From the IMG/VR virus record IMGVR_UViG_2778261227_000008: a DNA stretch of 5,181 bases, one strand, 5' to 3'. The notes beneath the pieces were generated by a model that was not told the origin of the DNA, ran no database searches, and saw only the letters and a list, made by a program, of their open reading frames with translations. The stretch comes from a virus (lineage: Duplodnaviria; Heunggongvirae; Uroviricota; Caudoviricetes). Positions 630 through 4,545 of the stretch are shown piece by piece (position 1 is the stretch's first letter; each line of letters starts with the position of its first letter). The position numbers and the translations under genes are program-made.

Positions 630-1055
630 TCAATGCACAGCCACAATATTTCCTGCAGGGCCACCACGATTCATCTGGTTGAAACCAGCGATCGCCACTG
701 CGACAAAATCATCAGCGTCTCTCACCAGTCGTTCCCGCGTCTCCACTAGTTCCCGAAAATAGGCTGAGCTATGGCTGCGCATTCGGGCCACCAGCAGAGG
801 TGGCATTGCTTTTTCGATAGCTGGTAACAACGCCTGAATTTTTTTAACCGCATCAGGGGTGTCTTTCTCCACCCAGCGGAAAATTTTCTGAGTATTGCGT
901 GCCAGGGCTTCCGGATGGCTGTCGTCATACAGTTCCGGGAACGTAATTCCCAGTTCGAAATACGCTTTGGTAATCTCTGCAGCCGGTACTTTCTCGCCGT
1001 CCGGATGTGCCCAGGCATTCATCGCCATGCGGATGTGTTCATGCTTGATTTTCAT
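630..1055 (-). CDS. ydaT: YdaT-like protein, 141 aa (CII-like regulator of Rac/CP-933P-type prophages; historically annotated as a toxin)
   Basis: ORF-track protein starts MKIKHEHI and is 141 aa. It lies immediately downstream of a Cro-like gene, with ATGA start/stop overlap at 1052-1055. Size and synteny match Rac ydaS-ydaT. The name is from recollection of the family, not a search. Confidence 0.7.
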   Translation of the reverse strand: MKIKHEHIRMAMNAWAHPDGEKVPAAEITKAYFELGITFPELYDDSHPEALARNTQKIFRWVEKDTPDAVKKIQALLPAIEKAMPPLLVARMRSHSSAYFRELVETRERLVRDADDFVAVAIAGFNQMNRGGPAGNIVAVH

Positions 1056-1354
1056 GAATCAACTCCATCAGATAAGCATGCACTACAATCACCTTCAGCA
1101 TGGACTACATGTGTTTGCCCCAAACGAATGCCGCTCGCATACTCAGGCCAAATAAGCTCCCAATCATGGGGTCGTAGCTCCGCCCTACTTACCTGGCCTT
1201 CCGTCGCAGATTCGATCATAAGGGCGCGGGTTGGAGATATAGCTGCTCGTCCAGACGCCATTTGCGATAAGTAAGATGGCGATACACCAAGTCTGGCCGC
1301 GAATTTCTTAGCATCACCAACTCTCAATGATTTAATAAACTCTTTTAATGTCAT
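1052..1354 (-). CDS. ydaS: YdaS-like Cro/HTH (XRE-family) DNA-binding protein, 100 aa
   Basis: ORF-track protein contains LGVSPSYLSQMASGRAAISPTRALMIESATEGQVSRAELRP, a typical HTH recognition-helix pattern. SD-like GAGGAAGG sits just upstream of ATG at 1354. It is divergent from the repressor-like gene and coupled to ydaT. Confidence 0.7.
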   Translation of the reverse strand: MTLKEFIKSLRVGDAKKFAARLGVSPSYLSQMASGRAAISPTRALMIESATEGQVSRAELRPHDWELIWPEYASGIRLGQTHVVHAEGDCSACLSDGVDS

Positions 1355-1382: not shown

Positions 1383-1445
1383 AGTTTAGTGTTTAATAAA
1401 CCATTAAGTCAAGTATTTGCTTGTTTAGTGATTACTAAAGATAAT
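1383..1445. promoter_or_regulatory. Divergent promoter/operator region between ydaS and the repressor gene
   Basis: Minus-strand promoter candidate: -35 TTGACT (rc of 1407-1412), 18-nt spacer, -10 TAAACT (rc of 1383-1388). Plus-strand candidate: -35 TTGCTT 1417-1422, 17-nt spacer, -10 GATAAT 1440-1445. The 11-bp palindrome GTTTA-A-TAAAC at 1391-1401 lies in the minus-promoter spacer. Direct repeats GTTTAGTG(T/A)TT at 1365-1375, 1384-1394 and 1423-1433. Elements read by eye, not scored. Confidence 0.5.
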
Positions 1446-1451
1446 TACCAC

Positions 1452-1823
1452 ATGCAAAAAAAAGAAATTCGCCGTTTACGTCTCAAGGAGTGGTTTAAAG
1501 ATAAAACTCTGCCACCCAAAGAGAAGAGCTACCTATCTCAACTAATGAGTGGGAGAGCCTCGTTTGGAGAAAAGGCTGCCAGAAGAATAGAGCAAACATA
1601 CGGGATGCCGGAAGGGTATCTGGATGCGGAATACGCAGAACAACCGGAGGTTTCTCCACCACATGCAGGGTTAACGTCTAATCAACTGGAATTATTGCAG
1701 ATTTTTTCAGCCTTCCCTGAGGATGAGCAACGCCAGATAATCAGCGAGTTAAAGCAGAAAAAAGAATCAATGGAAGACCTCATAGCGAGATGGATTGCGG
1801 CGCAAAAATGCCGCCGCGCCTGA
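1452..1823 (+). CDS. paaR2: HTH transcriptional regulator of a three-component toxin-antitoxin operon, 123 aa; occupies the prophage repressor position
   Basis: ATG at 1452, in frame within track ORF 1389..1823; the GTG at 1389 has no SD. XRE-like segment EKSYLSQLMSGRASFGEKAARRIEQTYGMPEGYL. It is divergent from the Cro-like gene and followed by an antitoxin-toxin pair. Identified as paaR2 from memory of the E. coli O157:H7 paaR2-paaA2-parE2 system; paralogue number not verifiable here. Confidence 0.65.
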   Translation: MQKKEIRRLRLKEWFKDKTLPPKEKSYLSQLMSGRASFGEKAARRIEQTYGMPEGYLDAEYAEQPEVSPPHAGLTSNQLELLQIFSAFPEDEQRQIISELKQKKESMEDLIARWIAAQKCRRA

Positions 1824-1843
1824 GTTATAAAACCGGAGGAAAC

Positions 1844-2035
1844 ATGAATAGAGCCCTTTCACCAATGGTTTCTGAGTTTGAAACCATTGAACAAGAAAAC
1901 AGTTACAACGAATGGCTGCGTGCGAAAGTAGCAACGAGCCTTGCAGATCCGCGCCCAGCAATTCCTCATGACGAAGTTGAGCGCAGAATGGCAGAACGCT
2001 TTGCTAAAATGCGCAAGGAACGGAGCAAGCAGTAA
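1844..2035 (+). CDS. paaA2: Small antitoxin, 63 aa (PaaA2-like)
   Basis: ATG at 1844 with SD GGAGGA at 1835-1840, in frame within track ORF 1790..2035. Product is MNRALSPMVSEFETIEQENSYNEWLRAKVATSLADPRPAIPHDEVERRMAERFAKMRKERSKQ. Its stop is 1 nt before the toxin start. Size and position fit the antitoxin of the ParE2 system, as recalled. Confidence 0.7.
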   Translation: MNRALSPMVSEFETIEQENSYNEWLRAKVATSLADPRPAIPHDEVERRMAERFAKMRKERSKQ

Positions 2036-2036
2036 A

Positions 2037-2315
2037 ATGTTACCCGTATTATGGCTTGAAAGCGCAGATACCGACTTGGATGATATAACTGGTTATATTG
2101 CTCGTTTCGACATAGATGCGGCAGAACGCTTATGGCAGCGATTAAGGGGTTGTGTGCTGCCGTTATCCGAACACCCGTATTTATACCCACCAAGCGACAG
2201 GGTGCCTGGCTTGCGTGAGATTGTGGCCCACCCTAACTATATAATTCTATACCGCGTAACAACATCAAGCGTTGAAGTAGTAAACGTGATCCACGCAAGA
2301 CGCCAGTTTCCCTAA
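2037..2315 (+). CDS. parE2: RelE/ParE-superfamily toxin, 92 aa (ParE2-like)
   Basis: ATG at 2037, in frame within track ORF 1941..2315. C-terminal pattern YIILYRVTTSSVEVVNVIHARRQFP is typical of ParE/RelE folds. Tightly coupled to the upstream antitoxin. Confidence 0.7.
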   Translation: MLPVLWLESADTDLDDITGYIARFDIDAAERLWQRLRGCVLPLSEHPYLYPPSDRVPGLREIVAHPNYIILYRVTTSSVEVVNVIHARRQFP

Positions 2316-3220: not shown

Positions 3221-3667
3221 CTAACCACAAAGAAATCGCATCAATTTAGATTTTGTGGGCAGCTTCTCTTGTTGTTCGATGGAAACGCCTATTTTGATCT
3301 GTGTTTTTAAGATCGCAATATCTTTAAGTGATGACCAAATATGATCATCCGTTTTTTCCAGAATTTTTAACTGCATTTTCAATTCAGAATCAGAATATTT
3401 TTCTGCATCATCAAAAAGCTGCAAATATTCTGCGGATTTTCTCATGGCGTTACCTGACTTTTGTCCGAATCCATAAATCGTTTGGACGGTTGCGATCACA
3501 ACAATAAAAACGCCAGAAATTTCCGGAATGAATCCGCCAATGACAGATGAACCGAGGATAATACTCACCACTGAGAGAAGTTTATCGAGACGACCAGTCG
3601 CTACAGAAAATAGTTGCTCAAGAAAATAGCCATATAAAATTCTGTCAAGAATATCATCCCGGTCCAT
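3221..3667 (-). CDS. Small two-transmembrane membrane protein, 148 aa; SieB-like (superinfection exclusion) by position, or a SLATT-like 2-TM effector
   Basis: Track ORF; ATG at 3667 with AGGTGA upstream. Two hydrophobic helices (LLSVVSIILGSSVIGGFI and ISGVFIVVIATVQTIYGF) followed by a charged helical tail. Orientation opposite to the PL-like operon and adjacent to a ydaF-like gene, as sieB is in Rac. Functional name is inference. Confidence 0.55.
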   Translation of the reverse strand: MDRDDILDRILYGYFLEQLFSVATGRLDKLLSVVSIILGSSVIGGFIPEISGVFIVVIATVQTIYGFGQKSGNAMRKSAEYLQLFDDAEKYSDSELKMQLKILEKTDDHIWSSLKDIAILKTQIKIGVSIEQQEKLPTKSKLMRFLCG

Positions 3668-3673
3668 ACATCA

Positions 3674-3820
3674 TCACCTGCTTGTTTGGTTGTTGCTGTT
3701 CCCCCTCTCCTCCGAAGGAGCTGGAGATGGTTTTGGTCGAATGTTTTTCTCTGGTATGTGATCCCAGACTGTTTTATGTGTCGAATTGCCACCACCTGCT
3801 TGTGCTCTTTGCTCTGTCAT
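3674..3820 (-). CDS. Possible small ORF, 48 aa, immediately upstream of the two-TM gene; uncertain
   Basis: Internal ATG of track ORF 3674..3937, with AAGGA 6 nt upstream. Its stop TGA is 7 nt before the two-TM gene ATG. Product MTEQRAQAGGGNSTHKTVWDHIPEKNIRPKPSPAPSEERGNSNNQTSR is hydrophilic and low-complexity. A plus-strand ORF at 3727..3882 with SD AAGGAG competes for the same DNA. Confidence 0.25.
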   Translation of the reverse strand: MTEQRAQAGGGNSTHKTVWDHIPEKNIRPKPSPAPSEERGNSNNQTSR

Positions 3821-4119
3821 ATGATTTCCTTGGATCGTTGGGGATATCCAGATTATACAGATTTCTTGTCGTTGGGGAATGACAGGAACCACCTCGCCTG
3901 ACGTGGTTAAAAGCAGGCACACAACACGAAAGCGCACGGCGAAGTCATTTCTCCCTCTGTTGCGTGTCGCCGGTATCTTCGACCGTGCGCTTCCGGTTGT
4001 GGCACTCCGCGAAATGGCGCGGCGGTAAGTATGGCGGGGTTATCCTTACCCCCACTGGTAGCACCGGGTTGTCAGGTTGACCATACGCCTGAGTGACAAC
4101 CCCGCTACAACACTCCATG

Positions 4120-4176
4120 TTGATTTGTACCTTTGGCGGCATCAGTTTCATTGCTGGCTGATGTCCCCCCTTTTTA
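4120..4176 (+). ncRNA. dicF: DicF-like small RNA with terminator-like 3' hairpin and U-tract
   Basis: Sits directly upstream of dicB as in the Qin dicB operon. Segment TTTGGCGGCATCAGTTT matches my recollection of E. coli K-12 DicF (TTTGGCGGTATCAGTTT). Stem CATCAG/CTGATG extended by G-C pairs and followed by CCCCCCTTTTT (4165-4175). 5' boundary is estimated; the 5' portion differs from K-12 as I recall it. Confidence 0.5.
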
Positions 4177-4178
4177 AA

Positions 4179-4340
4179 GTGAATTTTGTGATGCGGTGAA
4201 TGCGGCTGAGCGCACGCGGAACAGTTAAAAAGCGATTAGTTCCCCCGTATCGGGTGTTTATGGGTTTCCCTGTATCCGGCGTTAATTGTTAACTGGTTAA
4301 CGTCACCTGGAGGCACCAGGCACCGCATCACAAAATTCAT
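4179..4340 (+). other. 20-bp long-range inverted repeat bracketing the dicB leader
   Basis: GTGAATTTTGTGATGCGGTG at 4179-4198 is the reverse complement of caccgcatcacaaaattcat at 4321-4340 (19 of 20, the last pair G-U in RNA). The 3' arm ends 4 nt before the dicB SD (GAGGA 4345-4349). Confidence 0.6.
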
Positions 4341-4356
4341 TGTTGAGGACGCGATA

Positions 4357-4545
4357 ATGGAAACGTTATTACCAAACGTTAATACGTCTGAAGGTTGTTT
4401 TGAAATTGGTGTCAGAATCAGTAACCCTGTATTTACTGAAGATGCCATTAATAAGAGAAAACACGAACGGGAGTTATTAAATCAAATTTGCATTCTTTCT
4501 ATGCTGGCCCGTTTACGTCCGACTCAAAAAGGATACTGGCAATGA
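4357..4545 (+). CDS. dicB: DicB cell-division inhibitor, 62 aa
   Basis: Hand translation gives METLLPNVNTSEGCFEIGVRISNPVFTEDAINKRKHERELLNQICILSMLARLRPTQKGYWQ, recognised as DicB. SD GAGGA 7 nt upstream. Confidence 0.9.
   Translation: METLLPNVNTSEGCFEIGVRISNPVFTEDAINKRKHERELLNQICILSMLARLRPTQKGYWQ

Follow-up and report, generated by a model that had tools for sequence, protein, structure and literature searches.

Introduction

The nut sites of phage lambda consist of boxA (YGCTCTTA) followed by a boxB hairpin, which is bound by the N protein encoded in the same operon. The put RNAs of phage HK022 are processive antiterminators that need no phage protein; they suppress termination in cis via the zinc-binding domain of the RNA polymerase beta' subunit and occur in both the PL and PR operons. 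The C4 antisense RNA of phages P1 and P7 (RF01695) is a processed, structured RNA that heads a P1 operon at the immI locus, and this operon also encodes icd, a cell-division inhibitor.

DicF and the dicBF operon have been under study since 1989, and a 190-nt precursor of this sRNA is well known. The 190-nt species is RNase III-dependent and has a 5' end made by RNase III, while the 5' end of the 53-nt DicF species is made by RNase E (PMC10448788; PMC9438474). The 190-nt species is stable and builds up when RNase E is inactive, and the terminated ydfABC-dicF transcript is the main species in E. coli K-12 (PMC10448788). A cut by RNase III on the 3' side of DicF has also been described (PMC9438474).

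Results

Gene order and processing sites of the dicBF locus

The window, i.e., the whole 5,181-nt stretch of viral DNA that was analyzed (IMG/VR record IMGVR_UViG_2778261227_000008), corresponds to the immunity and early-left region of a lambdoid prophage that resembles Qin (Table 1). A near-identical copy of this region is present in E. coli NS-NP030, and positions 3979-4360 align with the ydfC-dicF-dicB segment of the Qin prophage of E. coli K-12, the DicF-like RNA of the window being syntenic with K-12 dicF. The PaaA2/ParE pair is an insertion at the head of the early-left operon, with the DicA-like repressor on one side and the YdfA-like gene on the other. The low-GC minus-strand ORF may be a moron; its insertion site has the early-left ORFs on one side and the RNase III hairpin on the other. 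In transcript order, the locus comprises a predicted RNase III hairpin (HP-A), a conserved structured element, an RNase E linker, DicF with its terminator, a further predicted RNase III hairpin (HP-B) and dicB.

Table 1. Positions of genes, RNA structures and predicted processing sites in the window.
Feature	Position	Strand	Evidence or remark
YdaS/YdaT-type pair	630-1354	-	
DicA-like repressor ORF	1389-1823		
PaaA2 antitoxin/ParE toxin pair	1790-2315	+	Pfam E = 1.7e-19 and 1.1e-15
DUF1391 (YdfA-like) ORF and two ORFs without assignment	after PaaA2/ParE pair		
148-aa low-GC ORF	3221-3667	-	phrog_6315, function unknown; no Pfam hit
HP-A hairpin, GAAAGCGCACGGCGAAG ... CTTCGACCGTGCGCTTCC	3927-3994	+	fold -28.8 kcal/mol; K-12 homologue folds alike
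Conserved structured element, ~116 nt, four-way junction (P0, P1, P2a/P2, P3) and pseudoknot	3996-4111	+	CM hit 151.5 bits
Helix P0, GTTGTGG with CTACAAC	3996-4002 with 4105-4111	+	98.5% paired
Hairpin P1, CCGCG (4007-4011), loop AAATGG, CGCGG (4018-4022)	4007-4022	+	98% paired
P2a, GGT (4024-4026) with ACC (4063-4065)	4024-4065	+	98-100% paired
Pseudoknot, GTATGG with CCATAC in P3 apical loop	4029-4034 with 4081-4086	+	
5' arm of pairing 1, GCGGGGTT	4034-4041	+	complementarity with 4098-4105 not conserved
Hairpin P2, GGGG (4036-4039), CCCC (4050-4053)	4036-4053	+	loop variable in length and sequence
P3 (= pairing 2), GGGTTGTCA (4066-4074) with TGACAACCC (4094-4102)	4066-4102	+	96% paired
Single-stranded linker with RNase E-type site UUGA/UUU at ~4123/4124	4112-4123	+	exact site inferred
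DicF-like sRNA and intrinsic terminator (stem 4138-4165, T-run 4171-4175)	4122-4175	+	terminator scan
HP-B, ~180-nt hairpin with base duplex of >20 bp, GTGAATTTTGTGATGCGGTG/CACCGCATCACAAAATTCAT	4171-4349	+	fold -74.5 kcal/mol
dicB, cell-division inhibitor, first downstream gene	4357-4545	+	Pfam DicB, E = 3.9e-36
DUF1482 gene	after dicB		

HP-A is predicted to be an RNase III substrate whose 3' arm is likely to give the 5' end of the 190-nt precursor. Counted back from the K-12 DicF 5' end, 137 nt lead into this arm, to a point between GACCGTGCG and CTTCCGG, and the calculated RNase III cut in the window lies at approximately 3989/3990, 6 nt before helix P0 of the element. On the other side of the element, the match to the Rfam DicF family (RF00039) spanned 4122-4170 and, at 30.3 bits, fell short of the gathering score of 48; the 5' end of K-12 DicF is RNase E-dependent. 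The element, located between the RNase III-made and RNase E-made ends that delimit the 190-nt species (Faubladier 1990; Ragunathan 2023), is the 5', non-DicF domain of this precursor, since it is flanked by the RNase III hairpin and the RNase E linker. A sequence-only reading of the locus had singled out positions 4034-4105 as an RNA structure placed where the DicF 5' end must be generated. This segment falls outside the RF00039 match, and the element belongs to the DicF precursor, not to DicF. The presence of an RNA structure on the plus strand, inside the precursor, was borne out, and so was its location, the 3' edge of the element being ~10-15 nt from the expected RNase E cut.

DicF of this prophage is a seed variant in which 8 nt of the K-12 5' region are absent. 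In DicF-like modules of other genera, the GGCGG...CCGCC terminator is kept and the 5' single-stranded regions are unrelated (e.g., UUGCUGUGUGUAG).

HP-B is STnc100-like (RF02076, 37 bits versus a gathering score of 47) and ends at the dicB ribosome-binding region. The RNase III cut known to occur on the 3' side of DicF is likely to lie in this hairpin. A module homologous to HP-B precedes terB in phage P7 (contig L003, 3897-4030), and HP-B looks like a reusable cassette for RNase III cleavage and translation control that is placed before early genes. An RNase III site formed by long-range pairing of CGTGCGCT (3985-3992) with AGCGCACG (4210-4217) was considered and dropped, as HP-A and HP-B both fold strongly locally.

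Distribution and conservation of the element

Homologues were collected by pattern scans of viral contigs, of one genome per species and of metagenomes, which yielded ~130 unique sequences; their hosts include Citrobacter, Trabulsiella, Erwinia, Izhakiella, and Serratia symbiotica. In blastn searches, 4,721 of the 5,426 complete E. coli genomes matched a 481-nt query spanning the element, and in 2,717 of them at least 80% of the query was matched. A block of ~100 nt was also found in many lambdoid phages, and a version with 77% identity in P1/P7 as well as in hundreds of P1-like plasmids. Compared with K-12, the ~130 nt upstream of DicF are nearly invariant, while DicF itself differs by substitutions and by an indel of 8 nt. 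Conservation of the element exceeds that of DicF.

Copies of the element and DicF identical to those of E. coli in two GTDB contigs (L131 and L135), assigned to metagenome-assembled genomes of Veillonella parvula and Collinsella, almost certainly reflect binning contamination. In L130 (Shigella flexneri) and L012, P0 and the RNase III hairpin were lost by a deletion between short CGAAA repeats that correspond to window positions ~3934 and ~4010; this loss fits decay in defective prophages.

Close relatives frequently differ by 1-nt indels, which argues that the element is not coding, and loop lengths vary. Together, these indels and variable loop lengths ruled out a protein-coding sequence on either strand. 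The minus strand at 3945-4151 carries a 68-aa RefSeq ORF, annotated in strain NS-NP030 as hypothetical protein WP_157898028.1 and present in several phage records too, which wholly overlaps the conserved RNA element and DicF; given the 1-nt indels in close relatives, it is very likely a spurious gene call.

Fold and covariation of the element

RNAalifold, applied to a MAFFT alignment of 53 distinct sequences, predicted P0, P1, P2a, P2, and P3 unaided. When the five helices and the pseudoknot were scored on this alignment, 95.9% of cells were paired and 16 pairs showed double changes, values that none of 500 shuffles reached; slid controls gave 35-52% of cells paired. The covariance-model (CM) alignment of 58 sequences gave 96.4% of cells paired and 17 double-change pairs, again reached by 0 of 500 shuffles. 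One invariant U.G and many G.U pairs in the alignment identify the plus strand as the folded strand.

P0 occurs with U-A, U.G, and C-G variants, including an L164-type form, GTTGCG..CTGT/ACAGCGCAAC. In P1, a G-C pair is replaced by A-U in two sequences, and phage P7 has the loop ACAGG. P2a encloses P2 and the 5' strand of the pseudoknot; its U-A pair has become C-G in P7, L243, and L292, so that P7 has GGC/GCC where the window has GGU/ACC. P2 has more than 25 distinct compensated stems among the homologues (e.g., CGGG/CCCG, CAGGG/CCCTG, TGGTG/CACCA, CAGGTG/CACCTG, and CCCGGG/CCCGGG) and double changes at 3 of its 4 pairs in the CM alignment. P3 shows double changes at 6 of 9 pairs, with a full swap to GGGTAACCA/TGGTTACCC in Izhakiella. 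It continues into an extension, GGT (4075-4077)/GCC (4087-4089), with a TGAG bulge (4090-4093) and a 9-nt apical loop, TGACCATAC; in Escherichia marmotae, the U.G pair of this extension is replaced by C-G.

The pseudoknot joins the internal loop of P2a to the apical loop of P3. All six of its pairs were formed in each of the 58 sequences of the model-fitted alignment (A5), and two independent compensatory changes were found, GCATGG/CCATGC in phage P1 and ATATGG/CCATAT in viral contigs L309 and L310, together with wobble intermediates in L239, L306, and L311. A later scan added one lineage (L312/L313) with an uncompensated C4082-to-A change in the pseudoknot.

Two overlapping complementarities at the 3' side of the element

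The sequence-only reading had proposed that TGACAACCCCGC (4094-4105) pairs alternately with GCGGGGTT and GGGTTGTCA, in mutually exclusive hairpins such as those of attenuators or RNA-processing signals. Both complementarities are placed exactly as it stated, and both are perfect. AACCCCGC (4098-4105) is the exact reverse complement of GCGGGGTT (pairing 1), TGACAACCC is that of GGGTTGTCA (pairing 2), and the 3' arms overlap by 5 nt (4098-4102). Among 10,000 dinucleotide-preserving shuffles of 4020-4115, a perfect stem of at least 8 bp was present in 7.7%. Since two such stems with a common 3' arm were present in only 0.04%, the shared-arm arrangement is not a chance product of composition; this rarity does not by itself make it a switch.

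The two pairings fared differently with respect to covariation and folding. Pairing 2 carries the compensatory changes described above for P3. For pairing 1, 74.0% of cells were paired versus 73.9% in shuffles, 264 of 500 of which reached the observed value, and double changes were not in excess. Its G4036-C4103 pair was formed in only 18 of the 53 sequences, and all eight pairs were retained in only 13 of the 58 homologues. The 5' arm of pairing 1 is also the 5' strand of P2 and varies with its local P2 partner, while the 3' arm AACCCCGC stays constant. In the fold of 3990-4116, the six outer pairs of pairing 2 had probabilities of 0.95-0.99 and its three loop-side pairs of 0.32-0.76; pairing 1 had a probability of ~0.001. 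The minimum-free-energy fold of the complete element (-46.2 kcal/mol) contains P0, P1, P2, and P3, and forcing pairing 1 raised the energy to -41.7 kcal/mol, a cost of 4.5 kcal/mol. Pairing 1 was chosen in a 5'-truncated, 156-nt fold, because this fragment cuts off P0 and P1 and neither can form. The complementarity itself arises because, in this lineage, GGGGTT in the 5' strand of the neighboring hairpin resembles GGGTT in the 5' strand of pairing 2.

Pairing 2 is the selected helix P3; pairing 1 does not represent a second state but a coincidence specific to this lineage. The earlier interpretation was therefore partly supported, in that there is RNA structure in the DicF precursor, yet not an alternative-hairpin switch. 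Its 72-nt segment is the middle of a ~116-nt pseudoknotted four-way-junction RNA, a sense-strand domain of the PL-type dicBF operon with one folded state, not two.

Genomic context in other phages

A search with the covariance model returned 58 hits from 58 sources, with one copy per locus. No second copy was present on the PR side: the window, L307, and L308, in which both operons are spanned, each hold a single copy. In phage cdtI, a near-consensus PL comes first, ~270 nt separate it from the element, and a DicF-like terminator and then an HP-B-like hairpin follow before the first ORF. In Tritos, HannyBb, and 2H10, the element belongs to the early-left operon and precedes exonuclease, xis, and int. 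None of these four phages has an annotated N gene, and no antiterminator PHROG was matched among nine early-left ORFs. In P7, the conserved block starts ~45 nt after the C1 operators of Pban (Op(ban)); in P7/P1, the element is followed by a terminator, GCCCATCTTCGGGTGGGCGTTTTTT, and lies upstream of the tRNA genes of the ban operon. The P7 leader that is headed by the element also contains tRNA-Asn, tRNA-Thr, and further structured modules.

Among 197 unique homologues for which flanking sequence was available, 184 had an intrinsic terminator no more than 200 nt away. The 13 without one include several detection failures; in the true exceptions (L164-type and L172), an HP-B-like hairpin or an ORF directly follows the element. 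The distance from element to terminator varies from ~40 to ~120 nt, and an inspection by eye of a few loci showed no conserved complementarity between the element and the terminator arms. In Trabulsiella, Erwinia, Izhakiella, and Serratia (L136, L138, L139, and L129), the terminator hairpin at the DicF position is far longer and lies ~60-130 nt downstream of the element. These long stems contain AGGAG...ATGTTCTACCG, which looks like a ribosome-binding site and start codon inside the terminator stem.

Just 5' of P0, homologues from outside E. coli have a boxA-like TGCTCT(T/C)T. In the E. coli lineage the boxA-like motif (GTGCKCTY) is degenerate (TGCGCTTC) and part of the RNase III hairpin. A related sequence, GTGCTCTTACCGTTGTG (boxA-like TGCTCTT plus GTTGTG), frames several structured modules in the ban-operon leader of P7, where it recurs at 3318-3397, 3551-3718, and 3897-3915 of L003. 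In Citrobacter- and Erwinia-type prophages (L133, L138, L143, and L164), it also recurs on the 3' side of the element, as the 3' arm of HP-B-like hairpins.

Searches for known RNA classes

A cmscan of 3996-4111 against Rfam 15 at E <= 10 returned only noise (mascRNA, 15 bits; SNORA7, 12 bits). Permissive Rfam scans of the window found DicF, the STnc100-like hit, noise, and no other family, and no C4 match at E <= 10. ARAGORN found no tRNA or tmRNA gene in the window, and a hammerhead-like CUGANGA/GAAA was rejected because the positions concerned are not conserved. Homology to put, suggested by a shared GCGCGGCGG and GGGUU..CAGGNUGA, failed a CM search and an alignment with shuffled controls: model R1 gave no hit at E <= 10 to putL/putR in the HK022 immunity region, and Smith-Waterman scores of the element against putL and putR did not differ significantly from those of shuffles (p = 0.12 and 0.25). 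Full-text literature searches, which did not take in older papers on put-like RNAs and the P1 genome, returned no description of the element, and the 2023 paper on dicBF regulation mentions neither a structure of the element nor terminator read-through nor Rho. The element is a well-supported structured RNA family that is apparently undescribed.

Discussion

The DicF literature examined gives neither a structure nor a role for the 137-nt 5' part of the precursor. Of all sequences in the locus, this part is the best conserved. It forms a pseudoknotted RNA in most E. coli genomes, and the element is shared by prophages of other Enterobacterales and by the P1 ban-operon leader. Among the explanations weighed for its function, a cis-acting role in read-through ranked first, tentatively. 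The domain would be a constitutively folded leader module that, as RNA emerging from polymerase, may act on the elongation complex by itself or together with Nus-type factors of the host, which the adjacent boxA-like GTGCKCTY could recruit. It would set how much transcription passes the next intrinsic terminator, namely that of DicF in this prophage and the strong one after Pban in P1/P7, with some transcripts ending as an sRNA and others extending into the genes that follow (dicB, exonuclease, xis, and int; the tRNAs and ban in P1). This ranking is based on the promoter-proximal position of the element, before the first terminator, in N-less phages and P1, on unpaired nucleotides that are invariant across unrelated leaders, on the boxA-like neighbor, and on retention of the element where no sRNA follows. 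Because families without an adjacent sRNA or terminator retain it, a role at the level of the operon fits better than one specific to an sRNA. However, each locus has a single copy and the PR side lacks one, unlike putL/putR, and there is no similarity to put in sequence or structure; in the E. coli lineage, the boxA-like motif is present in degenerate form and as part of the RNase III hairpin. A leaky terminator alone could, moreover, yield partial read-through, and the tight link to RNase III and RNase E sites equally fits a role in processing. Read-through need not be high, since the terminated ydfABC-dicF transcript predominates in K-12. The fold is shown and the function is inferred; the explanation as a whole, with its cis-acting read-through role, has somewhat less than an even chance of being correct.

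Nearly as likely as read-through is that the element serves as a platform for processing or stability: a rigid 5' block that presents the AU-rich linker to RNase E, such that a precise DicF 5' end is made, and that also protects the 190-nt precursor or the 3' end of the upstream mRNA from decay. Such a function would liken it to the tRNA that precedes a 3'ETS-derived sRNA or to the stem-loops that guide MicL processing. The element is the exact segment between the RNase III and RNase E cuts of the known precursor, in ~95% of cases an sRNA-like terminator module comes next, the stable 190-nt species builds up once RNase E is inactive (PMC10448788), and stem-loop-directed RNase E processing has a precedent (PMC9438474). 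Yet a pseudoknot and long invariant single strands, kept from P1 to Erwinia prophages, exceed the needs of a structural block, the downstream sRNA body is not conserved between P1-type and lambdoid types, and some families have no sRNA after the element. A stable structural RNA that is released and functions in trans, for instance as a decoy or binding partner of a host protein, appears unlikely. Extreme nucleotide conservation, four-way-junction connectivity with a 7-bp closing helix and flanking processing sites, and the place of the element as first of an array of stable RNAs in P1, which includes tRNAs, and in the P7 leader with its tRNA-Asn, tRNA-Thr, and structured modules would suit such an RNA, but no RNA of ~125-137 nt from the locus is reported in PMC10448788 or PMC9438474, ARAGORN finds no tRNA-like gene, and P0 is not evident in the P1-type.

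Control of the adjacent terminator by a ligand-sensing aptamer would suit an RNA that combines a complex fold, a pseudoknot and invariant nucleotides at its junction and that immediately precedes an intrinsic terminator. Such a riboswitch is nevertheless improbable: visual inspection of a few loci revealed no conserved overlap of antiterminator and terminator, the distance to the terminator varies as given above, and the element is restricted to phages. The genes downstream of it are also unrelated between hosts (dicB; orf39 of cdtI; tRNAs and ban), so that they share no pathway. More improbable still, and largely refuted, is a two-state switch for attenuation or processing, with TGACAACCCCGC alternating between GCGGGGTT and GGGTTGTCA. 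Its two complementarities are perfect in this prophage and rare in shuffles, and the 5'-truncated fold selects pairing 1; however, pairing 1 does not covary, is broken in most homologues and is nearly absent from the ensemble of the full element, and its 5' arm is taken by the covarying P2 hairpin, which forms first during transcription.

If the element controls read-through or sRNA maturation, it would explain how long early operons run through a terminator in N-less lambdoid phages and P1, and how toxic dicB is kept separate from DicF. Somewhat more doubtful than the read-through role itself is a broader proposal, according to which the element represents a new class of phage leader RNA by which host RNA polymerase, with or without Nus factors, is reprogrammed to pass terminators. 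This class would be unrelated to put in structure, would occur in N-less lambdoid prophages across Enterobacterales (including Qin of K-12) and in P1/P7, and might decide between production of a DicF-type sRNA only and expression of the whole early-left operon. Either way, an RNA-family entry is merited, and with it removal of the spurious protein annotation on the opposite strand.

Comparison with known systems

Several described RNAs share part of the properties of the element. C4 of P1/P7 is likewise a processed, structured RNA at the head of an operon with a cell-division inhibitor encoded downstream; its locus is immI, in contrast to ban for the element. As in tRNA-3'ETS sRNAs, MicL, and the DicF precursor, a stable folded RNA is directly followed by an RNase E site, cleavage at which releases an sRNA that ends in a terminator, but the element is neither a tRNA nor a simple hairpin and is conserved independently of the sRNA that follows. 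With nutL and the N-leader of lambda it shares the position in a PL leader, a boxA-like motif on its 5' side in homologues from outside E. coli, and RNase III hairpins in the leader, one of them abutting the ribosome-binding site of the first gene. Unlike nutL, it has a 116-nt pseudoknotted domain in place of a boxB-type hairpin and N-like protein, and its boxA match is partial and weak in the E. coli lineage. The put RNAs, of ~70 nt with two stem-loops and a triplex (PMC9378689), differ in that they have no pseudoknot of this kind, while the element is single-copy and missing on the PR side. Like HK022 putL/putR, the element is a sense-strand structured RNA in a repressor-controlled early operon of N-less lambdoid phages, upstream of terminators and more conserved than its flanks, and in cdtI and P1 it is promoter-proximal, as is putL. 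The element is not a member of the put or nut classes, though its position and conservation resemble those of both.
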